IMG/VR virus record: IMGVR_UViG_3300045988_038198
Span: 1-44,806 of that record
Strand: one strand, 5' to 3'
DNA length: 44,806 nt
DNA from: a virus
A program made the position numbers and the translations under genes. How positions within the stretch are numbered: position 1 is the stretch's first letter; every line of letters begins with the position of its first letter. Of the stretch, positions 3,413 through 39,084 are shown piece after piece. Below the pieces are notes generated by a model. The model was given only the letters and a program-made list of their open reading frames with translations. It had not been told where the DNA came from and made no database searches.

Positions 3413-4642
3413 ATGTTAAGCCCAGAATATTTACGCCGGATAACAGAGGGCAGTGAGCAGATTGCGGAAGAACTGCATCAATATATCATCTCTGAGATCG
3501 TGTCTCGAATGATGACAAGAATCGGCAGAGGTGAGGATTATATTCTGACTAATGCCGATGCGTGGAGAATCAGAACGCTACAGGAATCTGGTGAGCTGCT
3601 AGAGGACATTCTGGCAGAATTATCCAGATACACCAAACGCGAACAGCAGGAACTCCTTGAAGCGTTTGAAGATGCCGGTATCACTGCGATGAACTACGAT
3701 GATAAGATATACAAAGCGGCAGGATTAAGTCCCGTACCGCTCGAACAGTCTCCAGCTATGATAAGACTCATGGAGCGAAATATGCTTGCTACAATGGGAG
3801 AATGGCGGAACTTCACAAGGGCAACTGCAAATGTGGCTCAAAGGCTTTATATTGAGCAATGCGACCTTGCATACAATCATGTGATGACTGGAGCAGTTGG
3901 GTATACGCAAGCCATCAAAGAGGCGGTTAATAACGTTGTGAGTGATGGTGTTACGGTCACATATCCATCTGGCAGAAAAGACACGATCGAAACAGCAGTC
4001 GCACGTTCTGTCAGAACTGGTGTGGCACAGGCTACTGGAGATATATCCCTCAAGCGCATGGAAGAAATGGACTGGGATTTAGTTCTGGTCAGTGCTCACA
4101 TGGGAGCCAGAACAGGTGACGGCGGTGAGAACCCGGGAAATCACGCATGGTGGCAAGGAAAGATATACTCTCGTTCTGGCAAGAGCAAGAAATTTCCGCC
4201 ATTCTCATTGACCGGATACGGAACGGCAAGTGGATTGTCAGGGGTCAACTGTCGGCATAGTTTTGGAGCCAGTGATGGAGAATTTAATCCCTATACAGAA
4301 CTATCAGCGCAGGACAAAGCCAACAAAGGTAAACAGTACGAAAAAGAACAGCGACAGCGCACTTATGAGCGAAGAATCCGAAAAACAAAGCGTGAAGTCC
4401 TTGGAATGCAAGCGGCGGTTGATAACTGCAAAGACGAACAGGCAAAATTCGCATTACAGCAAGACCTTGACCGGAAGTCTTATCTTTTGCAGAAACAAAA
4501 TGCTGCATACAAGGAATACTGCAAGCAGAATGATCTAAGAGAGCTGCAAGACCGACTTATGATAGCTAAATGGAACCACCAGAATGCTGCAAAAGTTAGA
4601 GGAGCGGCAAAGAGATATAAAACAGCAAAGGGGATTGACTGA
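3413..4642 (+). CDS. Head morphogenesis / minor capsid protein, Mu F / SPP1 gp7 family
   Basis: Position after the portal gene, the conserved GVNCRHS motif, and a K/R/Q/E-rich coiled-coil tail. Confidence 0.8.
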   Translation: MLSPEYLRRITEGSEQIAEELHQYIISEIVSRMMTRIGRGEDYILTNADAWRIRTLQESGELLEDILAELSRYTKREQQELLEAFEDAGITAMNYDDKIYKAAGLSPVPLEQSPAMIRLMERNMLATMGEWRNFTRATANVAQRLYIEQCDLAYNHVMTGAVGYTQAIKEAVNNVVSDGVTVTYPSGRKDTIETAVARSVRTGVAQATGDISLKRMEEMDWDLVLVSAHMGARTGDGGENPGNHAWWQGKIYSRSGKSKKFPPFSLTGYGTASGLSGVNCRHSFGASDGEFNPYTELSAQDKANKGKQYEKEQRQRTYERRIRKTKREVLGMQAAVDNCKDEQAKFALQQDLDRKSYLLQKQNAAYKEYCKQNDLRELQDRLMIAKWNHQNAAKVRGAAKRYKTAKGID

Positions 4643-5025
4643 TGGATAGATGGGAATATTTCAACCCTAATCCTGTTAAGGATAAGAGAACAGGAGATTG
4701 CGTTGTCCGGGCAATATGCAAGGCAACCGGTTTTGACTGGGAAACGGTATTCGCCGGATTAATGATACAGGCATGTGCTCTGTCAGATATGCCGAGTGCA
4801 AATTATGTCTGGGGAGCGTACCTCTATAAACATGGGTACAGACGCAAACTGATTGAGCAATCAGAACAGTATATCTATACAGTCAATGATTTTTGCGCAG
4901 ACCATCCGACAGGTACATACATTTTATGCATAGATGGCCATGCAGTGACGGTACAGAATGGTAAATATTACGATACATGGGATAGTGGTAATGAGATCCC
5001 GGTATACTACTGGGAAAAGGAGTAG
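4642..5025 (+). CDS. Hypothetical protein, possible Cys/His (papain-like) fold
   Basis: ATGA overlap with the MuF gene stop. Contains GDCVVRAI ... IDGHAVTV ... DTWD. Confidence 0.6.
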   Translation: MDRWEYFNPNPVKDKRTGDCVVRAICKATGFDWETVFAGLMIQACALSDMPSANYVWGAYLYKHGYRRKLIEQSEQYIYTVNDFCADHPTGTYILCIDGHAVTVQNGKYYDTWDSGNEIPVYYWEKE

Positions 5026-5029
5026 CTAA

Positions 5030-5335
5030 ATGAGTATATCAGAATTTGTACAGATTTTCCTTTCTATCTGCGGAGGGGTGTCTATTGTCGGAGGCGCGGC
5101 AGCCGTAATCTTTAAGTGGATTACTCCGGCATTTCGACTCAACAAGCGAGTTGAGACACTGGAAGAACATGATAAGCGAGATTACGAGAGTCTTCAGAGG
5201 ATCGCGGAACGTGATTCATTGATTTTGGAAGTGCTATCAACCATGTTGGATAGTCAGATTAGTGGGAATAATGTAGAAGAATTAAAAAAAACAAAACAGA
5301 AGCTTACAAATTATCTTGCGCAGAATCAACGTTAG
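5030..5335 (+). CDS. Membrane-anchored coiled-coil protein
   Basis: N-terminal TM helix (IFLSICGGVSIVGGAAAVIF) followed by a charged helical region. Confidence 0.6.
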   Translation: MSISEFVQIFLSICGGVSIVGGAAAVIFKWITPAFRLNKRVETLEEHDKRDYESLQRIAERDSLILEVLSTMLDSQISGNNVEELKKTKQKLTNYLAQNQR

Positions 5336-5355
5336 CATTAGTAAGGGGTATGCTC

Positions 5356-5556
5356 ATGAAATTATATGTGTTCACGAAGAAAGATATAGACAGATTCTTG
5401 ATAGAGTGTAATTTCACACCGGACGAAGAAAGATTGTTCCGACTGAGATGTAAAGAACATACGCTCGAATACTGCGCTGAGCAGATGAACGTGAGTATAT
5501 CTACCGTAAAGAGATTAAGCAGAAGAGTAAACAGTAAGATTATAAAAGTATGCTAA
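5356..5556 (+). CDS. Small sigma-70 region-4 / LuxR-like HTH protein (66 aa)
   Basis: RBS AAGGGG lies 7 nt before the ATG at 5356. The sequence LTPDEERLFRLRCKEHTLEYCAEQMNVSISTVKRLSRRV fits a region-4-type HTH. Confidence 0.6.
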   Translation: MKLYVFTKKDIDRFLIECNFTPDEERLFRLRCKEHTLEYCAEQMNVSISTVKRLSRRVNSKIIKVC

Positions 5557-5581
5557 AAGGAGAGGCAATTTACCCCTCCTT
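5557..5581. terminator. Bidirectional hairpin between convergent genes
   Basis: AAGGAGAGG-caatttac-CCCCTCCTT (8 of 9 pairs) followed by a T-run on + and preceded by an A-run. Confidence 0.6.
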
Positions 5582-5585
5582 CTTT

Positions 5586-5753
5586 TTATGCAAAATCTTC
5601 TTTTACAGCTCTTTCAAGCAATAAAATTACGTATTCTGGTGGATTTCTTTTACCGCCTTCCCAGTTTTCAATTGTCCTTTTGGGAATTTTGTATTTATCG
5701 GAAAAAGCCTGCTGGCTTAACCCGGAAATTAATCTAATTTCTTTGATGCTCAT
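5586..5753 (-). CDS. XRE-type HTH protein, 55 aa (aca-like terminal gene of the leftward cassette)
   Basis: Hand translation gives MSIKEIRLISGLSQQAFSDKYKIPKRTIENWEGGKRNPPEYVILLLERAVKEDFA. It is below the 60-aa cutoff of the ORF track. RBS is GAAAGGAAC. Confidence 0.7.
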   Translation of the reverse strand: MSIKEIRLISGLSQQAFSDKYKIPKRTIENWEGGKRNPPEYVILLLERAVKEDFA

Positions 5754-5775
5754 ATTGTTCCTTTCTTTCTTCTTT

Positions 5776-5991
5776 TTATTTCCAACGCTTCACAATGCCT
5801 CCGTCGTAATGATCGGGCGTGTCCTCGTCCGGATTGATGCTTTCCAGCACGTAAAACTCCGATCTGTGTTTCTTTTCGCACCTTGTTAGATGCTCTCATT
5901 GTCCATCCGCTTCCTGAAGGGCTTCTTCTTTGTTCTCAAATTCATCGGTGAAACAATCACCGTCTGTATAATCCATAATTATATACTTCAT
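5776..5991 (-). CDS. Small acidic protein whose ORF is interrupted by an in-frame TGA at 5896..5898
   Basis: GGAGG lies 7-8 nt before the ATG at 5991. Triplet-by-triplet reading gives MKYIIMDYTDGDCFTDEFENKEEALQEADGQ*EHLTRCEKKHRSEFYVLESINPDEDTPDHYDGGIVKRWK*. Confidence 0.55.
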
Positions 5992-6002
5992 TTTCCTGCC
6001 TC

Positions 6003-6236
6003 CTAGTTAATCCCGATAACTTTGACTCGGGTCTGTAAAATATCCTCCGTGGGCTCCAGGATTTCAAAGTCAACGATAAGCTCCTCGCCGTCCTGATATA
6101 CGGCGATTGCTCCGGACTCTAACAGCTCTTCCCCGTCCCCGTCTCCGTACCAGAGCTGACCGAAATAGTATTCCTCTCCGACCTCTATTGTGTCGTTCTG
6201 TCCGTAAACGTAAGATAATGTGTTTAATTTTATCAT
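6003..6236 (-). CDS. Small, highly acidic protein (77 aa; 17 D/E vs 3 K/R)
   Basis: ORF-track ORF. RBS AAGGAGG lies 8 nt before the ATG. It is the first gene after the leftward promoter. Confidence 0.7.
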   Translation of the reverse strand: MIKLNTLSYVYGQNDTIEVGEEYYFGQLWYGDGDGEELLESGAIAVYQDGEELIVDFEILEPTEDILQTRVKVIGIN

Positions 6237-6281
6237 TTTTTATTCCTCCTTGATTTTTTGTTCTTCCCTGTTTCTGATGTT

Positions 6282-6310
6282 ATCATACCACTCAGTGGGT
6301 GATATGTCAA
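6282..6310 (-). promoter_or_regulatory. Leftward sigma-70-type promoter TTGACA-17-TATGAT with the palindrome CCACTcAGTGG in its spacer
   Basis: On the + strand, tgtcaa is at 6305..6310 and atcata at 6282..6287. The palindrome is at 6288..6298. Confidence 0.7.
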
Positions 6311-6387
6311 TACTTTTTTGATACTTTTTTGAACTTCTTAGATTAATACTTTTATGCAAAAATATAATCAGAAAGGCGGTGTATAAG

Positions 6388-6858
6388 ATGGCATTATATA
6401 ACAATCCTTATCAATATAGTTTTGGCGTTCCGGGGCAGATGAACCAGTTCCAGCAACAGCCTGTCCAGATTCCAGCTCAACCAGTACAGCAACCACAGCA
6501 GAATAATAGCGGTATCCTGTGGGTATCCGGCGAAGTCGGCGCAAAATCCTATCTGGTAGCACCCGGGACAAGTGTTTTGCTGATGGACAGCGAAAGTGAA
6601 AAGTTCTACATAAAATCCACAGATGTATCCGGTATGCCACAACCACTGCGGACATTTGAATACCACGAGGTAGGTTCTCAGATGCCGCCTAAGCAGCCTG
6701 TTCAGAACATGGACAGTAAATATGTTACTCGACAGGAATACGATGATTTGAAAGGCAAATACGAAGTTATCATAAACCGATTAAATTCATTTTCTGAACC
6801 TGTTAGGGCTAATACCGTACAGGAATCAGCGACCAAGGGAGGAAATGCAGATGAGTAA
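6388..6858 (+). CDS. Q/P-rich N-terminus protein (156 aa), function unknown
   Basis: ATG at 6388 follows AAAGGCGG. N-terminus is MALYNNPYQYSFGVPGQMNQFQQQPVQIPAQPVQQPQQNN. Confidence 0.65.
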   Translation: MALYNNPYQYSFGVPGQMNQFQQQPVQIPAQPVQQPQQNNSGILWVSGEVGAKSYLVAPGTSVLLMDSESEKFYIKSTDVSGMPQPLRTFEYHEVGSQMPPKQPVQNMDSKYVTRQEYDDLKGKYEVIINRLNSFSEPVRANTVQESATKGGNADE

Positions 6859-7072
6859 TCCATTATTTAACGCACTTGGCGGCGGGATGCCGCAGGGAAA
6901 CGGACCAATGCAGATGATACAACAGTTTATGCAGTTTAAACAGAATTTTAAGGGAGATCCGAAAGCAGAAGTCGAGAAAATGTTGCAGTCTGGAAAGATT
7001 TCTCAACAGCAGCTCAATCAAGTTCAACAGATGGCAGGGCAATTCCAGCACATGTTGAAAGGAATGAAATAG
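6851..7072 (+). CDS. Q/M-rich small protein (73 aa; 15 Q, 9 M)
   Basis: ATG at 6851 lies 8 nt after AAGGGAGG and overlaps the stop of the previous gene. Confidence 0.6.
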   Translation: MSNPLFNALGGGMPQGNGPMQMIQQFMQFKQNFKGDPKAEVEKMLQSGKISQQQLNQVQQMAGQFQHMLKGMK

Positions 7073-7079
7073 TACATTA

Positions 7080-7095
7080 CAATCTGGCCAGATTG
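7080..7095. repeat. Perfect 16-bp palindrome CAATCTGGCCAGATTG
   Basis: Read directly in the 7073..7124 spacer. Confidence 0.8.
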
Positions 7096-7124
7096 ATGTA
7101 AATACACAAAAAGGAGATTATATT

Positions 7125-7904
7125 ATGGATGGAAATTATAGCTTAGCAGATATTGCCGCTGCTACTGGAAACGGTAGAAATAATGACGGCATGTTTGGCG
7201 GAGATGGTAGCTGGTGGATTATTGTTTTATTCATTTTTGCTTTCTTCGGATGGGGAAACAACGGCTGGGGCAATAATGGAAACGGCGGCGGATATGCAGC
7301 CACAGCAGCTACTCAGGCAGATATTCAGAGAGGATTTGATAATTCCGCAGTAATCAGCAAACTTGACGGAATCAATAGCGGCCTGTGCGATGGCTTCTAC
7401 GCCATGAATAACGGTATGCTTACCGGATTTAACGGAATCAACACCAACATCATGCAGACTGGCTTCGGCATCCAGCAGGCTATTAACGCTGACACTGTAG
7501 CAAATATGCAGAATACCAATGCACTCCAGGCACAGCTTGCAAACTGCTGCTGCGAAACCAGAGAAGCAATCCAGGGCATAAACTATAATATGGCACAGAA
7601 TACCTGTGCATTGCAGAACACCATGAACAGTAACACAAGAGACATTATCGACAGCCAGAACGCCGGAACAAGGGCAATCCTTGATTACCTGTGCAACGAG
7701 AAGATTTCTTCCTTACAGGCTGAAAACAATGATCTCAGACGTGCTGCTTCTCAGGACCGCCAGAGCGCACTTCTCACAACTGCAATGGCTTCACAGACAC
7801 AGCAGCTCATTAATGCGATTAATCCAGCACCGATTCCAGCATATCAGGTTCCTAACCCGAACACATATTACGGATGTGGATGCAATGCTGGGTGCAATTG
7901 TTAA
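7125..7904 (+). CDS. N/Q/G-rich membrane protein with a Cys-rich tail (259 aa)
   Basis: RBS AAAGGAG. Contains a TM segment (WWIIVLFIFAFFGW), GWGNNGWGNNGNGGG, an internal CCCE and the C-terminus YYGCGCNAGCNC. Confidence 0.7.
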   Translation: MDGNYSLADIAAATGNGRNNDGMFGGDGSWWIIVLFIFAFFGWGNNGWGNNGNGGGYAATAATQADIQRGFDNSAVISKLDGINSGLCDGFYAMNNGMLTGFNGINTNIMQTGFGIQQAINADTVANMQNTNALQAQLANCCCETREAIQGINYNMAQNTCALQNTMNSNTRDIIDSQNAGTRAILDYLCNEKISSLQAENNDLRRAASQDRQSALLTTAMASQTQQLINAINPAPIPAYQVPNPNTYYGCGCNAGCNC

Positions 7905-7969
7905 CAACTTCATATCGAGAGTATCTTTCGATTGATTTCGGATGTCGGCTTATGCCGTATTACACAGAG

Positions 7970-7993
7970 GGGCAGGCTGAGACCTGTCCTTTT
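7970..7993 (+). terminator. Rho-independent terminator
   Basis: GGGCAGG-ctgaga-CCTGTCC followed by TTTT. Confidence 0.65.
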
Positions 7994-8015
7994 GTGATAT
8001 GAAAGGAGTATTTTT

Positions 8016-8438
8016 ATGGCAGAATTTACAAATGTAGCTGCTCAGACTGTAGCAGCAAATGGAAACGTAGTATTTTCAAACACAGCAGTCAAAGGTTCTA
8101 ACTGTATTCAACACAGAGAGGGAAGCGGAATCATTACCCTGAGAGGGCTTACTAACCAGTGTAAAGCAAGATTTTTCGTGGATTTTTCTGGCAATATCGC
8201 AATTCCAACAGGCGGTACTGTCGGAGCTATTTCTCTGGCTATTGCAATCTCTGGCGAACCTGTATTATCTTCACAGATGATTTCCACACCGGCAGCAGTA
8301 GACCAGTACAACAATGTGTCCTCTGGCATCTATATTGATGTACCTCGCGGATGTTGCGTTAATATCGCAGTAGAGAACACAAGCAATCAGGCTATTTCTG
8401 TTGCGAACGCAAACATTGTCGTAACCAGAGAAGCGTAG
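8016..8438 (+). CDS. Beta-rich 140-aa protein with a C1q/TNF-like (BclA C-terminal-domain-like) sequence pattern
   Basis: RBS GAAAGGAG. The alternating strand pattern NVVFSNTAVKG..GIITLRG..ARFFVDFSGNIAI..ISLAIAISGEPV..GIYIDVPRGCCVNIAVEN..ANIVVTR was recognised by eye only. Confidence 0.5.
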   Translation: MAEFTNVAAQTVAANGNVVFSNTAVKGSNCIQHREGSGIITLRGLTNQCKARFFVDFSGNIAIPTGGTVGAISLAIAISGEPVLSSQMISTPAAVDQYNNVSSGIYIDVPRGCCVNIAVENTSNQAISVANANIVVTREA

Positions 8439-8449
8439 GAGGTGTGATT

Positions 8450-9004
8450 ATGAGAGACATTAAAGACTTATGCGCAAGAATTGAAGACGAACTGTCCAAA
8501 ATCGCTGATAATGGACTGACCACCGGAAATCTGGAAATGACATACAAGTTGATTGATATGTACAAAGATATCAAGAACACTCAGTACTGGGATAAGAAAG
8601 TAGAGTACTACAACACTGTCCTTGATGAGATGCGTGGTGGCTACAATGACGATTACAGCGAACGTGGAAGAAAACGTGATAGTATGGGGAGATACAGCGC
8701 AAATGATGGCAGAATGATGCCGGATTACGACAGGGGCAATTCTTATGCCAGACGGGGTGAGCATTATGTCAGAGGGCATTACAGCCGTTCTGATGGACGA
8801 GATGCTTATGACGATTACATGACGCAGAAACAGAGCTATCGTTCCGGCAAGTCTGAGGACTGCAAGAGGAAGATGCTTGCCGCTCTGGAAGAACATCTGG
8901 ACGAACTCACAACAGAAATGAGCGATATGTCTAAGGACGCAGAGTGCCGGGAGGAACGCGATCTTGTCAAGAGATACGTAGAAAAACTCCGGGATATGCT
9001 TTAA
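8450..9004 (+). CDS. R/D/Y/G-rich low-complexity protein (184 aa)
   Basis: ATG at 8450 lies 7 nt after GGAGG. The central region reads RGGYNDDYSERGRKRDSMGRY...RGHYSRSDGRDAYDDY. Confidence 0.65.
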   Translation: MRDIKDLCARIEDELSKIADNGLTTGNLEMTYKLIDMYKDIKNTQYWDKKVEYYNTVLDEMRGGYNDDYSERGRKRDSMGRYSANDGRMMPDYDRGNSYARRGEHYVRGHYSRSDGRDAYDDYMTQKQSYRSGKSEDCKRKMLAALEEHLDELTTEMSDMSKDAECREERDLVKRYVEKLRDML

Positions 9005-9011
9005 AAACACA

Positions 9012-9051
9012 AAAAGTGGTAGAGAGGTAGTTAAAAGAAATCTGTTATAAT
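9012..9051 (+). promoter_or_regulatory. Putative late promoter: AAAAGTGGTAGAGAG, then 19 nt, then TGtTATAAT
   Basis: The 15-mer at 9012..9026 is identical to 44584..44598. The extended -10 is at 9043..9051. Confidence 0.55.
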
Positions 9052-9330
9052 GTAATTGTGCAGCAGGAAGCACAAGTAAAACGGTTGTTTTGACATTTTC
9101 GTTTTAATCCTCCTTTCTTTAATTTAGTAGCTGGTGCGCACGCTTTAATGGAAAGTTAAACAGGTCCGAATCCTGTCGTGCGTATTTGCCGTCTGGCACG
9201 CAAGATGGCTCACCTCCTTGATTAAGGTTTTTGTTATTTATACTTTTCTTTTAAAAGAAATAAATATCCGAAACAACTCGTGGCAGGCATAACACGTTAA
9301 ATACCTTGCTAACCCGGGAATCCGGGTTAA

Positions 9331-9403
9331 TGGAATGTAGCTCAGTAGGAAGAGCGGAGATGCTGAATTCTTGACGTCAGAGGTTCAAGTCCTCTCATTC
9401 CAT
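9331..9403 (+). tRNA. tRNA-like gene with a non-canonical anticodon arm; isotype not assignable
   Basis: Acceptor stem TGGAATG/CATTCCA, U8, D arm GCTC-AGTAGGAA-GAGC and T arm AGAGG-TTCAAGT-CCTCT are canonical. Positions 27-43 (GAGAT-GCTGAAT-TCTTG) do not pair. The best alternative is GAGA/TCTT with an 8-nt loop. Confidence 0.5.
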
Positions 9404-9480
9404 TACCCTGCCAGTGGTCTAACTGGCTTAATCCATTTACCTGCGGCGGCAGGTCAATAAACACGACCAGGAGGATATAT

Positions 9481-10113
9481 ATGCAGAAACTTATTGACAC
9501 ATTAAAATCGTATGGAATTGAAATCCCGGAAGATAAACAGGCAGATGTGAAGAAAGCACTCTCTGAGCATTATAAGAATGCTAAAGAAGTAGCGAAAACT
9601 CTGTCGAAAGTCGAGGGTGAACGTGATGACTGGAAAGAACGTGCCGAGACAGCAGAAGAAACCTTAAAAGGCTTTGACGGTATCGACCCGGCGAACATTC
9701 AGACAGAGCTTGCTGAATGGAAGAAGAAAGCTGAGGATGCAGAGAAGGAATTCAATGCAAAGATCTATGACCGCGATTTTTCAGACGCACTTAAAACAGC
9801 ACTTGATAATGTTAAATTTTCCAGTGAGGCTGCAAAAAGGTCAGTCATGGCAGACATTAAAGAAGCCGGATTAAAGCTGAAAGATGGCAAGATACTTGGG
9901 CTGAATGATTTGATTGAGCAGATGAAACAGTCTGACGCATCCGCTTTTGTGGATGAATCTCAGCAACAGGCTCAGCAGAATCAGGCAAGATTCACCACTC
10001 ACGTTGGACAGCAGCAGACACCGGGAAGCATGACAAAGAAAGATATCGAAGCAATCAAAGACCCGTCCGAGAGACAGGCTGCAATTGCTCAGAATATCCA
10101 GTTATTCCAGTGA
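9481..10113 (+). CDS. Scaffolding protein (GP20-like)
   Basis: A charged, helical 210-aa ORF directly upstream of the major capsid gene. RBS is AGGAGG. Confidence 0.7.
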   Translation: MQKLIDTLKSYGIEIPEDKQADVKKALSEHYKNAKEVAKTLSKVEGERDDWKERAETAEETLKGFDGIDPANIQTELAEWKKKAEDAEKEFNAKIYDRDFSDALKTALDNVKFSSEAAKRSVMADIKEAGLKLKDGKILGLNDLIEQMKQSDASAFVDESQQQAQQNQARFTTHVGQQQTPGSMTKKDIEAIKDPSERQAAIAQNIQLFQ

Positions 10114-11380: not shown

Positions 11381-11884
11381 ATGGCTTATGCAGATTATGA
11401 ATTTTATACAACTTCATATTTCGGTTCGGTCGTGCCAGAAGCTGACTTTCCACGACTGGCAGAAAGAGCCAGTGATTTTGTGGACACAATGACATTTGAC
11501 AGGTTGGTGGACGGACTGCCGACAGATAAACGCTCTCAGAAGCGTATCAAAAAGGCGGTCTGTTCATTGGCTGAATTAATGTATCAGATTGAGCTTGCTG
11601 AAAAGAATGCTGCCAATGCCGCCGCTAGTGGAGCATCAACCACAATCGGGCCCGGTGGTAGCACGACAGGCGTTGTAACTTCTGTGTCATCCGGCAGTGA
11701 ATCCATCTCTTACGCCACGCCACAGCAAAAAGCATCAGGTGCAAAGGAATGGAGTGCAGTGTATGCCGCTGCCGGAGATGTACAGAAAACGAATGACTTA
11801 CTCTTAAAGACAGCTTTACCGCTTCTGATGGGAGTAAGGACGGATGAAGGGATACCGATTTTATATGCAGGATTTCAAGGTTGA
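11381..11884 (+). CDS. Head-tail connector (gp6-like adaptor)
   Basis: Position after the capsid gene. The N-terminus YADYEFYTTSYFGSVVPEADFPRLAERASDFVD is typical of gp6-like adaptors. Confidence 0.6.
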   Translation: MAYADYEFYTTSYFGSVVPEADFPRLAERASDFVDTMTFDRLVDGLPTDKRSQKRIKKAVCSLAELMYQIELAEKNAANAAASGASTTIGPGGSTTGVVTSVSSGSESISYATPQQKASGAKEWSAVYAAAGDVQKTNDLLLKTALPLLMGVRTDEGIPILYAGFQG

Positions 11885-12218
11885 TATCTTAGGCTCTGAA
11901 TGGAGCGTGAAGTTCGGGAACAAGAAACAATATCCGAGTCTGACAAATGCAGATGGCTATACTGATTTATCAACACGGGAAATTGTGGTTGATGACATGG
12001 AGACATCGCAGGGACAGATTGGAGTAAAAGCAGACCTTAAAAGTTATCAGAAGCAGGTTATTAGGCACGAAATCATCCACGCATTTCTGATGGAATCTGG
12101 ACTTGATTCTAATTCAAATAGTGCTGACAGCTGGGCTACAAACGAAGAAATGGTTGACTGGTTTGCTATTCAGTCACCAAAAATTTTTAAAGTATTCAAT
12201 GAACTTAAATTGATGTGA
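11844..12218 (+). CDS. Putative Zn-metallopeptidase-like protein (HEXXH)
   Basis: Contains VIRHEIIHAFLMESG. The start (11844 or 11865) overlaps the previous gene. Confidence 0.55.
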   Translation: MKGYRFYMQDFKVDILGSEWSVKFGNKKQYPSLTNADGYTDLSTREIVVDDMETSQGQIGVKADLKSYQKQVIRHEIIHAFLMESGLDSNSNSADSWATNEEMVDWFAIQSPKIFKVFNELKLM

Positions 12219-12228
12219 GGTGATAATA

Positions 12229-12498
12229 ATGGACATTACAACATTAGGCTCATGTATAGCAATCGTTATGATTTGCTACATCGTAGGAATGGGCTGTAAG
12301 GCATCAAAAAGAATCTCTGATGAATGGATTCCGGTGATCATGGCGGTTACTGGCGGGATTCTCGGAGCAGTCGGAATGGGAATTATCCCGGATTTCCCGG
12401 CAACGGATTATATCACGGCGGTTGCAGTCGGTATGTTTAATGGATTGTCGGCCACTGGTGTAAATCAGGTTATTAAGCAGACAGTGCAGAAAGAATAA
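12229..12498 (+). CDS. Holin-like membrane protein (phage_holin_4_1 / Hol44-like pattern)
   Basis: ATG follows GAGGTGA. It has two TM helices plus the amphipathic GLSATGVNQVIKQ tail typical of that holin family. Confidence 0.6.
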   Translation: MDITTLGSCIAIVMICYIVGMGCKASKRISDEWIPVIMAVTGGILGAVGMGIIPDFPATDYITAVAVGMFNGLSATGVNQVIKQTVQKE

Positions 12499-22333: not shown

Positions 22334-24568
22334 ATGGCTGATACATATACTATACAATTCCGACGCGGCATGTACGCTGATTTTGACACGTCAAAAATTC
22401 GCCCTGGAGAGCCTGTTGCAATTCTTGGCAATGACCCATCCGTTCCATCTGGCAAAGCCTTATACATTGCGTTTGCGGCTAATGATGTAAGGCGGTTGTG
22501 TTCCATTGAGGATATTTCAGAGATGGTTAATGCCGGAGAATTTGTTGGTCCACAGGGTCCGAAAGGTGAAAAAGGAGATAAGGGCGCAGACGGTACCGTA
22601 GCATTTGAATCGCTGACACCTGAACAGAAAGAATCGCTAAGAGGAATATCTATTAAGTCAGCTTCTATTGACACAGACGGAAATCTGATAATAACGTTTT
22701 CGGATGGAGGCAGCGAAGACGTTGGAAATATTATGGGTCCGCAGGGAATTCAGGGACCCAAAGGTGATAAGGGTGATGTTGGACCACAGGGACCCAAAGG
22801 TGATAAGGGTGATGTTGGACCAAAAGGTGACAATATGAGCGATAAACAGGCCGCGCAGATCGAACAGAACAAGACGGATATTGCTTCGCTGAAAAAGGAA
22901 ACTGGTTCGCTAAAGGAAGATTTATCCAATAAAATCACCAAATTCTACGCCAGTTCGCAAGGCGAAAATCATCTTGCCGATTCCGACAATGGCAAGATTC
23001 AAGATATGATGCTGTATGGGAAGTCTGAGCAGAAACGGTATTCGGGGAAGAATTTGCTGAATGCTATGTTGCAGACTACTACACAGAATGGTGTTACTTG
23101 TACCGCGAATGGCGATGGAACTTATACATTAGATGGGACTGCAAATGCAAATGCTGTATTTAATTTGGGATCAGTTACTTTTACAGGTGATACAAAATAT
23201 AAGATATGTGGTTGTCCGCAAGGCGGTGGAATAATCGAACGATATCATATAGAGCCTTATGGATCAACAAATGAGCAAAGAGATATAGGAAACGGTGTTA
23301 TATATTCATTGTCTAATGACGAAACAAAGGCCATATATATTGTTGTAACCATTGGCTTTAGAGCAAGCAACCTCCTCTTCAAACCAATGATAACCACTGA
23401 CCTAACCGCCACCTACGATGATTTCGAACCCTACACCGGTGGTATCCCAAGCCCAAACCCTGATTATCCGCAGGAGATTAAGAGTGTGGTGAATCCGACT
23501 GTGAAGGTTTGTGGGAAGAATTTGTTTGATTCTAAAAAATTCCCAATTATATTAAACAGGGGGTTGGATACCAATACAGGCAATATATATCAAACGATGA
23601 GTGGAAAATATTGTGCCACTGAGAAGTATATACCTTTTCCGTATAGTGGCAAAAAAATTTCATTTAACGCTTCAATGTCATTATGTGCATATGACCAAGA
23701 TTATAAATTCATTTCTAGTGTTAATAAATATGATGGTCAAGTTCCATCTGGGACAATATATGTCAGATTTGACATTAAAACAGAAGATAAAGATAAAGCA
23801 CAGATAGAATTATCCGAAAACGCAACCCCTTACGAACCCTACCACGAACAGACCGTCACCCTCCCATACACATTAAACGCTATCCCTGTAAGTTCAGGTG
23901 GTAACGTCACAATTGATGGTCAGCAGTATATTGCAGATTATGTGGATGTGGAACGTGGGAAATTGGTTAGGATGTGCAAAGAATATGTCATTACTGGCTC
24001 TGAAAGACTGGCAATGTATTGGCTTGGGAATGCGTCATATTTAAGAAATGTATGTTGTATAAATAATTTTGAAAATATAGTTTTATATGATGGAATAAAT
24101 CCACTTGCAATGTCTGACATGTTTATTGGTAAAATAAGTGAGAATGCAGATGATGAACGTGCTATATACTTGATGCTTCGTGGAAGTGGTGATAAAACAC
24201 TTGCTATTAAATTCCTTGATAGTGATGGAATAACGACTGTTGATTTAGCAAAACAATGGCTAATAGAACATAAACCTAAAACTGTATTCGTATTATCAAC
24301 TCCAGAAGAAATCGACCTCACATCCGAAGAAGTACAGGCATTCAAAGCACTTGCAACATATTATCCAATCACAAATATATCCATCAATTCAGAGCAACTT
24401 GACGGATATACAGTATTAAACTATCCAATAAGCATGGAGAACGGTTGGAATTATGTAAAACAGCAGATAGGCGATACGAGAGATTATATCTATGACATGG
24501 ACATACAGAGCGCAGAAGCCTATGTCAACAGCGAATATGCAGTAGCATTAACAGAATTGGAGGTATGA
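22334..24568 (+). CDS. Tail fibre / receptor-binding protein with collagen-like G-X-Y repeats
   Basis: Contains GPQGPKGEKGDKGADG and GPQGIQGPKGDKGDVGPQGPKGDKGDVGPKGD. 744 aa. Confidence 0.75.
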   Translation: MADTYTIQFRRGMYADFDTSKIRPGEPVAILGNDPSVPSGKALYIAFAANDVRRLCSIEDISEMVNAGEFVGPQGPKGEKGDKGADGTVAFESLTPEQKESLRGISIKSASIDTDGNLIITFSDGGSEDVGNIMGPQGIQGPKGDKGDVGPQGPKGDKGDVGPKGDNMSDKQAAQIEQNKTDIASLKKETGSLKEDLSNKITKFYASSQGENHLADSDNGKIQDMMLYGKSEQKRYSGKNLLNAMLQTTTQNGVTCTANGDGTYTLDGTANANAVFNLGSVTFTGDTKYKICGCPQGGGIIERYHIEPYGSTNEQRDIGNGVIYSLSNDETKAIYIVVTIGFRASNLLFKPMITTDLTATYDDFEPYTGGIPSPNPDYPQEIKSVVNPTVKVCGKNLFDSKKFPIILNRGLDTNTGNIYQTMSGKYCATEKYIPFPYSGKKISFNASMSLCAYDQDYKFISSVNKYDGQVPSGTIYVRFDIKTEDKDKAQIELSENATPYEPYHEQTVTLPYTLNAIPVSSGGNVTIDGQQYIADYVDVERGKLVRMCKEYVITGSERLAMYWLGNASYLRNVCCINNFENIVLYDGINPLAMSDMFIGKISENADDERAIYLMLRGSGDKTLAIKFLDSDGITTVDLAKQWLIEHKPKTVFVLSTPEEIDLTSEEVQAFKALATYYPITNISINSEQLDGYTVLNYPISMENGWNYVKQQIGDTRDYIYDMDIQSAEAYVNSEYAVALTELEV
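22754..22825 (+). repeat. Tandem 36-bp duplication encoding GPKGDKGDVGPQ/K
   Basis: Unit 22754..22789 is repeated at 22790..22825, identical for the first 32 nt. Confidence 0.85.
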
Positions 24569-24821: not shown

Positions 24822-26189
24822 ATGACAAACGAACAGAAAACGGTTCTCAGAAAGATTATTTATGCAACTGAAACCGGCGGACAGGTTTATGGACAGCAGG
24901 ATTATTCGGACTTCACAGAAGCTTATGAGAACAATTCGGATGAACACGCAATCACGATTGGAGCAGGAGCATGGTATGCAACCGAAGCCAAGACACTTCT
25001 GGAGCGGATTTACGATGCTGACCCGGAACAGTGGGAGAAAATAGACAAGGTCAGACTTCTGGAACAAGTTCAGACCGCAAATTGGGAATGCTTCAATATT
25101 TCCAGAGTGTCACAGCTTGCCGACACCATAGTTGCCCTTATTTCGTCCGATTTGGGCGTTAAATGTCAAGATAACCTTATGGATGAACAATTAGCCACCT
25201 ATGCAGATGAAGCCCTTAAACAGGGCGTTACGGACGCTAGAGCGCAAGCTATGTGTGTGAACTTTAGGCATCAAGGTGGACAGGGAGCAGTAACAAGGAT
25301 TTTGGCAAAGACCCAGAAACCATATACACTCGATAATCTCTATGCAGCCTGCCAGACGGACACAGGGAATCAAGTGGGGACATATAAGAGCCGGCAGAGG
25401 TTTGTTTATAACGCATTAAAAAAATATTTCCCAGAGGAGGAGCAAGATAATATGAGTAAGACAGAAAAAGCAACAAAACAAATGGAATCATGGGCACAGG
25501 ACAGCTATCATGGGTACGATCAGGATTATCGCTGGGGAGAAAAAGGAGATTTTGACTGTTCTTCAGCGGTGATTCAGGCGTGGCAGAACGCCGGAGTTCC
25601 GGTCAAAACAAAAGGAGCCACCTATACTGGTGATATGAGAACTGTATTTCTTTCATGCGGGTTTAAAGACGTGACCAGCAAAGTTAATCGTTCAACTGGT
25701 TCTGGACTTTTAAGAGGAGATGTGCTACTTAATGAGACACACCATGTCGCAATGTACTGTGGAAATGGAAAAGAAGTAGAAGCCAGTATTAACGAGAAAG
25801 GTACTGCTCATGGCGGACAGCCGGGAGACCAGACAGGAAAAGAGTTCCTGATTAGAAGCTACAGAAATTACCCGTGGGATTGCGTTTTGCGATATTACGA
25901 AAGCAGCGCAGCAGACAATGCAGTTGTCAAAAAGCAGAACACAAGAGCCTACATTGCACAGATAAAAAAGGACACAAAATGTTATGCAAAATCAAACAAA
26001 AACAGCCCATCAAAGCTGTTCCCAAAATTGAAAAAAGGTGCAGTTGTAGAGGTAATGAAGTACACAGAAACAGACAGTTCCGGGCTGAAATGGTACTTCG
26101 TCAGAATCCCGTACCCGAATGATGATGGGTTCGTATTTGAGTTTGTCCCGAAGGGCGTATTTACCAGAATTTCAGAAATTCATAAATAA
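24822..26189 (+). CDS. Endolysin: N-terminal glycosidase-like domain, central Cys/His amidase-peptidase (Amidase_5/NlpC-P60-like) and C-terminal SH3b-like domain
   Basis: Contains IYATETGG, then GDFDCSSAV...ETHHVAMYCG...GGQPGDQTGKE, then KKGAVVEVMKYTETDSSGLKWYFVRI. Confidence 0.75.
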   Translation: MTNEQKTVLRKIIYATETGGQVYGQQDYSDFTEAYENNSDEHAITIGAGAWYATEAKTLLERIYDADPEQWEKIDKVRLLEQVQTANWECFNISRVSQLADTIVALISSDLGVKCQDNLMDEQLATYADEALKQGVTDARAQAMCVNFRHQGGQGAVTRILAKTQKPYTLDNLYAACQTDTGNQVGTYKSRQRFVYNALKKYFPEEEQDNMSKTEKATKQMESWAQDSYHGYDQDYRWGEKGDFDCSSAVIQAWQNAGVPVKTKGATYTGDMRTVFLSCGFKDVTSKVNRSTGSGLLRGDVLLNETHHVAMYCGNGKEVEASINEKGTAHGGQPGDQTGKEFLIRSYRNYPWDCVLRYYESSAADNAVVKKQNTRAYIAQIKKDTKCYAKSNKNSPSKLFPKLKKGAVVEVMKYTETDSSGLKWYFVRIPYPNDDGFVFEFVPKGVFTRISEIHK

Positions 26190-39050: not shown

Positions 39051-39070
39051 GTATACAGTATATTGTATAC
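39051..39070. promoter_or_regulatory. Inverted repeat GTATACA-gtatat-TGTATAC upstream of 39085
   Basis: Read directly within an AT-rich spacer. Confidence 0.5.
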
Positions 39071-39084
39071 AATATTCAAAGGAG

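Follow-up and report, generated by a model that had tools for sequence, protein, structure and literature searches.

What are five genes of unusual composition doing between the head-morphogenesis (MuF) and scaffold genes of a temperate phage? The question is raised by positions 6388 to 9004 of IMG/VR virus record IMGVR_UViG_3300045988_038198, the whole stretch of which (44,806 nt) was analysed and is called here the window. The phage is temperate, with genes for an integrase, a CI-like repressor and an endolysin. A first-pass annotation of the five genes, designated here A to E, had proposed that they remodel the surface of the host spore or cell or, alternatively, that they encode cross-linked decoration proteins of the capsid. 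Comparison with related loci shows that A to E belong to a dispensable accessory cassette which is neither a core head component nor spore-specific, and that the module is not part of the conserved head-assembly pathway. The reading that we favour, tentatively and with appreciable doubt, makes the interval the central part of a mobile, dispensable and self-contained accessory module of gut and rumen Clostridia phages, in which C and D would form a membrane-anchored fibre at the cell envelope.

The five open reading frames (ORFs) are indeed present on the plus strand: A at 6388-6858, B at 6851-7072 (overlapping the end of A), C at 7125-7904, D at 8016-8438 and E at 8450-9004. Each has a properly spaced Shine-Dalgarno site, and the start codons chosen by the first-pass annotation are those served by these sites. 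The compositional peculiarities that it ascribed to the proteins are also borne out: the Q/P-rich N-terminus of A, the 15 Q and 9 M among the 73 residues of B, the single hydrophobic segment, internal CCCE and tail YYGCGCNAGCNC of C, the all-beta character and GCC pair of D, and the R/D/Y/G-rich core of E. Synonymous and non-synonymous codon differences were counted across 80 near-identical viral contigs, giving 1325:81 for D, 1920:169 for E, 237:34 for C, 1652:410 for A and 784:179 for B, as compared with 754:200 for the major capsid protein and 2397:482 for the scaffold protein. Since synonymous differences far exceed non-synonymous ones in all five, A to E are functional genes. Purifying selection on all five is strong, and D and E tolerate less change than the capsid protein does.

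The head genes on either side of the cassette are MuF (3413-4642) and scaffold (9481-10113). The insertion had been estimated at 2.6 kb; the block that separates the two head genes actually measures 4.8 kb (4643-9480). Besides A to E it holds a gene for a papain-like protein (P), a gene for a protein with transmembrane and coiled-coil features, a gene for a protein with a helix-turn-helix (HTH) motif like that of sigma factor region 4 (sigma-r4-like), two minus-strand genes and a tRNA-Gln gene. The notion that A to E form a unit of their own, punctuated by regulatory elements and set into the head module of the window phage, stands. All five proteins match PHROG families of unassigned function (E 5e-27 to 1e-63). 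Scans of the five and of their neighbours against Pfam, NCBIfam and PADLOC returned nothing informative except HTH domains, and sequence searches of the PDB, with single proteins and with profiles of D, P, C, A and E, gave no significant match.

Related loci (L-numbers below) were reached through distant homologs of D and through annotated phages. They display a conserved order, (sigma-r4-like HTH)-(P)-A-B-C-D-E, with P abutting A directly in Butyrivibrio phage Ceridwen and in loci L086 and L091. The overlap of A and B is conserved in Ceridwen, Dulem virus 35, the Clostridium perfringens phages and Vescimonas. Some lineages have extra genes, for a 66-78-residue protein with a hydrophobic N-terminus or a 175-197-residue helical protein. 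In the window, the HTH gene (5350-5556, plus strand) encodes a 68-residue protein of phrog_1190 that matches TIGR02937 (E 3.9e-5) and, below the curated cut-off, Pfam Sigma70_r4 (E 5.8e-4). Such a gene stands directly upstream of the cassette in L002, L083, L087/L088, L099 and L100, and in at least six lineages altogether, so that this protein is likely a dedicated regulator of the module.

The order is conserved while the place is not. The cassette is found between MuF and scaffold genes in the window, in Dulem virus 35 and in L099. In Ceridwen and in a 45-kb phage with a DNA polymerase A gene (L087), it comes directly after the endolysin gene at the end of the late operon, and the cassette of a Vescimonas prophage also follows an endolysin gene. 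It is located after the gene of a 1268-residue tail protein in L091, is convergent with tail genes in L092, and lies between an antirepressor gene and Gam/Erf in the C. perfringens phages XP41-N3 and 17DYC. In Eubacterium ramulus and Vescimonas fastidiosa, it occupies the extreme end of a prophage, beside host tRNA genes. The module thus behaves as a moron would, occurring in at least five different genomic positions and being polymorphic for its presence. The viable phage phiCP39-O lacks A, B, C and two following genes (X and Y), yet the genes on either side match their XP41-N3 counterparts at 96-98% identity. L099 and the window are 90% identical at the DNA level in the scaffold region, whereas their C proteins are only about 27% identical and the whole cassette is a divergent allele. 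In chimeric ORFs of public assemblies (P0124, P0210, P0132, P0184 and P0028), the body of D is preceded by the N-terminus of P, A or C; P0028 joins C at about residue 50 to D at a GN(G/V) microhomology. These chimeras are apparently deletion variants inside the cassette. The varied positions, the absence from phiCP39-O, the L099 allele and the deletion chimeras together indicate that the module is mobile, exchangeable and dispensable for infectious particles.

A few peculiarities of individual loci were recorded. A 287-residue ORF between D and E of Ceridwen (L001 8449-9312) resembles an insertion of the homing-endonuclease type, to judge by its sequence and by an annotation that likens it to a protein of Acinetobacter phage AP22. 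In E. ramulus (L100 6525-7415), the cassette-bearing prophage end abuts three tandem tRNA-Glu(CTC) genes and, on the opposite strand, a 128-residue fragment of the Mn-catalase family, perhaps truncated at the integration site. A cassette fragment with A, D and a split C occurs on a 3.3-kb contig binned as the archaeon Methanobrevibacter (L085), in all likelihood through faulty binning. Scanning genome contigs with single proteins produced four related loci, and the viral scan produced only copies 99-100% identical. In the plasmid search, the sole carrier found was the prophage on the Vescimonas chromid.

Like phage morons and lysogenic-conversion cassettes, the module is autonomous, with its own regulator and hairpin, has a variable position (near attachment sites, after lysis genes) and shows presence/absence polymorphism between near-identical phages. 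Unlike them, it is also carried by apparently virulent phages, comprises 5-10 genes instead of one or two and is under very strong purifying selection. The moron-type positions and polymorphism, the regulator and the presence of a membrane protein would also suit a phage-borne defence or superinfection-exclusion system, in which C would be the membrane effector and its partners sensors or adaptors. However, the PADLOC scan detected in C only a weak match to the ZorA coiled coil (E 0.006), its other matches being generic HTH domains, and no nuclease, NTPase or other typical defence domain was found. Moreover, the carriers include apparently virulent phages, and selection on D and E is more strongly purifying than on the capsid protein, unlike that on arms-race genes. 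A defence role is therefore very unlikely.

The most informative protein is D. An exhaustive representative search recovered 696 family members at 50% identity; nearly all of the 150 of them that were listed are single-domain proteins of about 135-157 residues, or shorter fragments. An alignment of 71 diverse homologs was used for AlphaFold2. In the resulting model (predicted local distance difference test, pLDDT, 97.9; predicted template modelling score 0.90), a ten-stranded jelly roll of the C1q/TNF type spans residues 2-138 of 140. The top 50 PDB matches are almost all members of the BclA, ExsF, C1q or TNF families. Foldseek aligns the model with the C-terminal domain (CTD) of the F-BclA tip fibrillum (9h38) at E 7e-8 and a template modelling (TM) score of 0.72-0.77, with BxpB/ExsFA (8d02, 7r1m, 9h3d) at 0.74-0.75 and with the BclA CTD (1wck, 2z5w, 2r6q and others) at 0.65-0.67; EDA (EDA-A1) and C1q are also among the matches. 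Against a viral structure library, D aligns best with small proteins of phages; two of these bear the name 'BclA protein' (TM 0.76 and 0.86). Pfam BclA_C (PF18573) recognises 8 of the 71 homologs (best E 2.3e-10), the D protein of the window itself having no match at E<=1. The likeness to C1q and BclA suggested by the first-pass annotation is thus borne out by model, fold matches and homologs alike, and D, by its predicted structure, stands alone as a jelly roll of the C1q/TNF type and belongs to the BclA C-terminal family. The resemblance to DUF3992 and Ena proteins that had also been considered is not: neither D nor any of the 71 homologs matches such a family in Pfam, and Ena is missing from the top fold matches.

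D shares its jelly roll with the BclA CTD (PF18573), including that of F-BclA in the F-ENA fibres of Bacillus, at only 12-15% identity. In contrast to BclA, D has neither a collagen-like GXY stalk nor an N-terminal exosporium-targeting region, the whole of its 140 residues being jelly roll, and it is encoded by phages, among them Ceridwen, whose host is taken as non-sporulating. It is closer in design to ExsFA/BxpB, the exosporium anchor of the Bacillus cereus group, which is likewise a single-domain C1q-like protein of similar size. However, no sequence homology to ExsF is detectable, and D is devoid of the N-terminal extension of ExsF. ExsF-type standalone C1q-like trimers serve as sockets for fibre termini, and an equivalent role is proposed below for D and the tail of C. 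The CC pair of D (residues 113-114) is kept in 55-56 of the 71 homologs.

Two other proteins were compared with D. The window phage also encodes a 744-residue tail-fibre-like protein with collagen triple-helix repeats (22334-24568); it has no similarity to D, and the idea that the two are paralogs was rejected. In the C. perfringens phages, the D slot is filled by a 125-residue protein that begins with a CNRRCNCCNRR motif followed by a beta-rich part (L096, corresponding to XP41-N3 6670-7047; L097 5638-5997), and the C protein of these phages keeps its Cys tail despite the replacement. The 125-residue protein is not a divergent D (hhalign probability 0.4%) and matches nothing in Pfam or the PDB. 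Its layout is reminiscent of the Cys connector and jelly roll of Ena spore-appendage subunits.

Does the kinship of D with exosporium proteins mean that the cassette acts on spores? A prophage might express exosporium- or coat-like proteins during sporulation, namely the ExsF/BclA-like D, the Cys-rich C, the Tyr/Arg/Gly-rich E and a Tgl-like P. The closest structural relatives of D (F-BclA, BclA and ExsFA/BxpB), the temperate nature of the window phage and, by inference, the compositional parallels to coat proteins agree with this scheme. C. perfringens and many Lachnospiraceae do sporulate. On the other hand, Butyrivibrio fibrisolvens, the host of Ceridwen, is not known to sporulate, and E. 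ramulus and V. fastidiosa, whose prophages carry the cassette, are described as non-spore-forming. In addition, none of the hidden Markov model (HMM) searches for coat, exosporium, YjcZ, GerQ or Tgl families gave a match. Some carriers also seem to do without lysogeny. Only lytic growth of Ceridwen has been seen, and its authors judged it virulent (PMC7372960). Likewise, no lysogeny genes were present in the 16 kb of the DNA-polymerase-A phage (L087) that were examined. Since phage-host pairs with neither sporulation nor lysogeny also make use of the module, the spore hypothesis is deprived of its mainstay, and we consider it highly improbable.

Protein C (phrog_16490, E 3.5e-58) is a putative single-pass membrane protein. 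From its N-terminus, it consists of a short acidic stretch and a Gly-flanked hydrophobic helix (peak at residues 28-42, Kyte-Doolittle 2.07), after which come a long helical region rich in N and Q, a PxPxP(A)Y motif and, last, the Cys-rich tail. No signal peptide is found. C88, C251 and C259 are present in all eight diverse homologs compared, and the CCC triplet in seven of them. Its N-terminus had been likened to YjcZ; an NCBIfam scan (TIGR01732 included, E<=1) disclosed only a spurious match to StbC. To the eye, the Cys-rich termini and the Gly-flanked hydrophobic segment are also those of ExsY/CotY, CdeC/CdeM and the tiny YjcZ-type transmembrane proteins. The absence of any HMM match to these families at the same threshold makes this a likeness of composition only.

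When the profile of C is compared with the PDB, only sub-threshold coiled-coil matches appear, mostly to influenza HA2 from the fusion peptide through the long helix (E 0.1-0.9). They may serve as a lead rather than as evidence, since they could reflect coiled-coil composition. A tblastn search with the C family also touches genes of crAss-like phages annotated 'spike protein/glycoprotein'. These matches, together with the location of the cassette after or next to holin and endolysin genes in Ceridwen, L087, L086 and Vescimonas, would fit an accessory role in lysis or egress. C, with its hydrophobic Gly-rich segment ahead of a long helical region, would then be membrane-active in the manner of a class-I fusion subunit, of the T4 holin T or of an i-spanin; perhaps after maturation by P, it would work on the membrane as infection draws to a close. 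Yet all the similarity scores are non-significant, and the phages already possess recognisable holins and endolysins. The hosts of the module are probably monoderm, so that a spanin-type step would be needless. Such a role would also leave D, E, A and B without employment. It seems distinctly unlikely.

We return to the favoured reading, that of a membrane-anchored fibre made by C and D. In this model, the one hydrophobic helix of C, flanked by Gly, would anchor the protein in the cytoplasmic membrane, and C would form a helical, probably trimeric, stalk. Its Cys-rich tail would dock on a putative trimer of D, or be cross-linked to it through thiols or a metal, D having a conserved CC pair of its own. 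The product, headed by a C1q-like domain, would be the equivalent, built from two genes, of a membrane-anchored TNF ligand or of a BclA-type fibre. The low-complexity or helical proteins A, B and E would serve as cytoplasmic assembly partners or as a matrix, and P would process or cross-link one of the components. Its site of action would be the cell envelope during infection or lysogeny, for example around the time of lysis, in superinfection exclusion or in the masking of receptors, and neither the virion nor the spore.

Several observations point to this arrangement. C and D are invariably adjacent and together provide the order anchor, stalk and C1q-like head. Both have conserved cysteines, and the protein that replaces D in the C. 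perfringens phages is again Cys-rich, with the tail of C retained. The socket function of ExsF-type trimers is a further argument, 9h3d being among the fold matches of D. No N-terminal signal-like segment was seen in A, B, D, E or P; with export signals lacking from every partner, assembly is placed on the cytoplasmic side. The TNF-family ligands, type II membrane proteins with a C-terminal trimeric TNF-homology domain, have the domain order that C and D repeat together. They differ in that the anchor and stalk on the one hand and the head on the other are here separate polypeptides of adjacent genes; the likeness is one of architecture, not homology, and the topology of C is a predicted one. 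The analysis establishes the genes, their conservation under selection, their mobility and dispensability and the fold of D, whereas the contact between C and D, the place at the membrane and the function are inferred.

Some facts weigh against the fibre. The hydrophobic segment of C could be a buried core instead of a membrane helix, and disulfide cross-linking is unlikely in the cytoplasm of an anaerobe. P turns up in phages of Bacillus and Geobacillus and in Lak phages where no cassette accompanies it, and some cassettes do without it; it may be unrelated to the module. Finally, in three lineages the cassette resides inside the head module on the late strand, which also fits a role in the virion. 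In that case the proteins would be dispensable decoration fibres of the head or tail, with D trimers on the particle and C and E cross-linked through cysteines after release into oxidising conditions. The position between MuF and scaffold genes in the window, Dulem virus 35 and L099, that after tail genes in L091, the usual placement on the late strand and the frequency of C1q-like domains at phage fibre tips all agree with this. Dispensability is no obstacle, as shown by SPP1 gp12, a dispensable decoration protein. However, the cassette is outside the head genes in most lineages. It is found beside an antirepressor gene in the early region of the C. perfringens phages and, in E. ramulus and Vescimonas, at the prophage end. 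A regulator of its own and a protein with a transmembrane-type segment also belong to it, and D is unrelated to the collagen-repeat tail fibre of the phage. The capsid decoration proposed by the first-pass annotation is weakened by these non-structural positions, by the co-travelling regulator, by the membrane segment of C and by the existence of a natural cassette-less phage, the near-identical phiCP39-O. A virion accessory is unlikely, in our opinion. A search of the literature on BclA and C1q proteins in phages and on the cassette-bearing isolates found no functional or proteomic data.

A more speculative proposal is that the cassette encodes a phage-borne, self-assembling layer of the exosporium type. 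The ExsF/BclA-like D trimer, the C stalk, a matrix of A, B and E and P as a papain- or transglutaminase-like cross-linker might form a cross-linked protein coat on vegetative cells, on membrane fragments set free or around virions. We see little likelihood in it. If true, it would mean either that the module and the architecture of spore surfaces have a common origin, or that a spore-like coat helps the phages to persist outside the anaerobic gut.

The module is abundant. D, C and P are each represented by at least about 8,000 clusters at 90% identity in public data, and one lineage alone accounts for at least 587 near-identical viral contigs. No description of the module was found in the literature, the families existing only as unnamed PHROGs. 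D is a new and very large phage branch of a known fold family, and the multi-gene unit is without described counterpart, although phage accessory cassettes, among which it falls, are familiar as a class. The BclA/ExsF-type fold, so far met mainly on spore surfaces and at fibre tips, is now seen in a multi-gene unit with a putative membrane anchor, and this unit is common to temperate and lytic phages of the dominant gut Clostridia. Cultivable carriers exist, namely Ceridwen, XP41-N3 and 17DYC, and phiCP39-O provides a natural cassette-less comparator; the role of the module is therefore directly testable.

In other phages the module frequently begins with the gene for P, a 127-residue protein that the window encodes at 4642-5025 (plus strand). 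Among 74 homologs, D19-C20, D111 and W113 never vary, and H100 is kept in at least 90%. In the AlphaFold2 model (pLDDT 94), the Cys is at the N-terminus of helix 20-29, and the His strand (100-105) is adjacent to the Asp strand (108-111). This is the canonical Cys-His-Asp placement of the papain-like cysteine peptidases (clan CA, for instance C39 and Josephin). P differs from them by its minimal size and by the lack of a significant sequence or fold match to any family: Foldseek gives only weak papain-like matches, to Josephin-2 (the best, E 0.21), the C39 domain of PCAT1 (TM 0.46) and Tae4, there is no Pfam match, and the PDB profile search gave nothing relevant. Protease and transglutaminase chemistries cannot be told apart from the model. 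The possibility that P acts as a transglutaminase on the Q-rich A and B, by analogy with Tgl and GerQ, is neither supported nor excluded. P homologs without the cassette are located in the early regions of Tsamsa-like phages of Bacillus and of Geobacillus phage GBK2, and also occur in Lak megaphages. Because P also occurs alone, its tie with the cassette is frequent, not obligatory.

The remaining cassette proteins can be described briefly. A (phrog_21718, E 3e-38) carries a small, conserved domain of beta type behind its Q/P-rich N-terminus and ends in a helix. An alignment of eight diverse homologs shows D67, Y74, K76, D79 and G82 to be invariant, and A has no match in Pfam, NCBIfam or the PDB. 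B (phrog_22984, E 5e-27) is a Q/M-rich helical protein. In E (phrog_28802, E 1e-63), N- and C-terminal helices are joined by an R/G/Y/D/S-rich low-complexity linker, the length of which varies from about 12 to more than 150 residues among aligned homologs; its equivalent in L087 matches Pfam DUF7841. A 106-residue HExxH protein directly follows E in the E. ramulus prophage (L100 11130-11450), and an HExxH protein in the connector region of the window (11844-12218) is weakly similar to it (E 1e-4).

Three other genes separate P from A, apart from that of the putative regulator. The first (5030-5335, plus strand) encodes a 101-residue protein with an N-terminal hydrophobic helix (Kyte-Doolittle 2.14, residues 6-20) and a helical C-terminal part. 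Its homologs are found in the equivalent place in L099 and near the endolysin gene in Ceridwen, and its link with the module is loose. The other two are on the minus strand: a 55-residue XRE-type HTH protein (5586-5753; Pfam HTH_3, E 2.7e-7), specific to the lineage of the window, and a 77-residue acidic protein (6003-6236), whose ORF has a ribosome-binding site and is divergent from A.

As regards the DNA elements, a promoter-like site, TTGAAA-17-TACAAT, lies upstream of C on the plus strand (7055-7083) and is a consensus match only. Its -10 box overlaps the palindrome at 7080-7095 to which attention had been drawn. The palindrome is an exact 16-bp one, and is not exceptional since the window contains three perfect 16-mers against about 0.7 expected. 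The other two are TTTCTTTTAAAAGAAA at 9245-9260, in the spacer after E, and ATATTGTATACAATAT at 39060-39075. The terminator placed at 7970-7993, between C and D, corresponds to a strong and in fact larger hairpin (7963-7996, plus strand; free energy -24.9 kcal/mol, z -5.7, with 0 of 200 shuffles folding as well). The free T-run that should follow the stem is absent, and the hairpin is possibly a partial terminator or an mRNA-stabilising element. As for the late promoter said to follow the cassette, an extended -10 sequence, TGTTATAAT, can be read by eye at 9043-9051; the consensus scan does not list it. The best sigma70-like match of the region is on the minus strand (6310-6282), with 11 of 12 matches and a TG, and goes with the gene of the 77-residue acidic protein.

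The tRNA-Gln(CTG) gene (9330-9404, plus strand; ARAGORN and Rfam) occupies the 476-bp spacer between E and the scaffold gene. In the relative L099, the equivalent spacer holds tRNA-Ile(TAT), so that it looks like a variable tRNA slot, not a partner of the Q-rich genes. The idea that the tRNA supplies these genes was set aside for this reason and because CAG is the preferred codon phage-wide; a functional tie with the cassette is probably lacking. Further downstream, a Hol44-family holin gene (12220-12498) sits among the head-tail connector genes, about 12 kb from the NlpC/P60+ELLD endolysin gene (24822-26189), and Dulem virus 35 is annotated with an equivalent arrangement.

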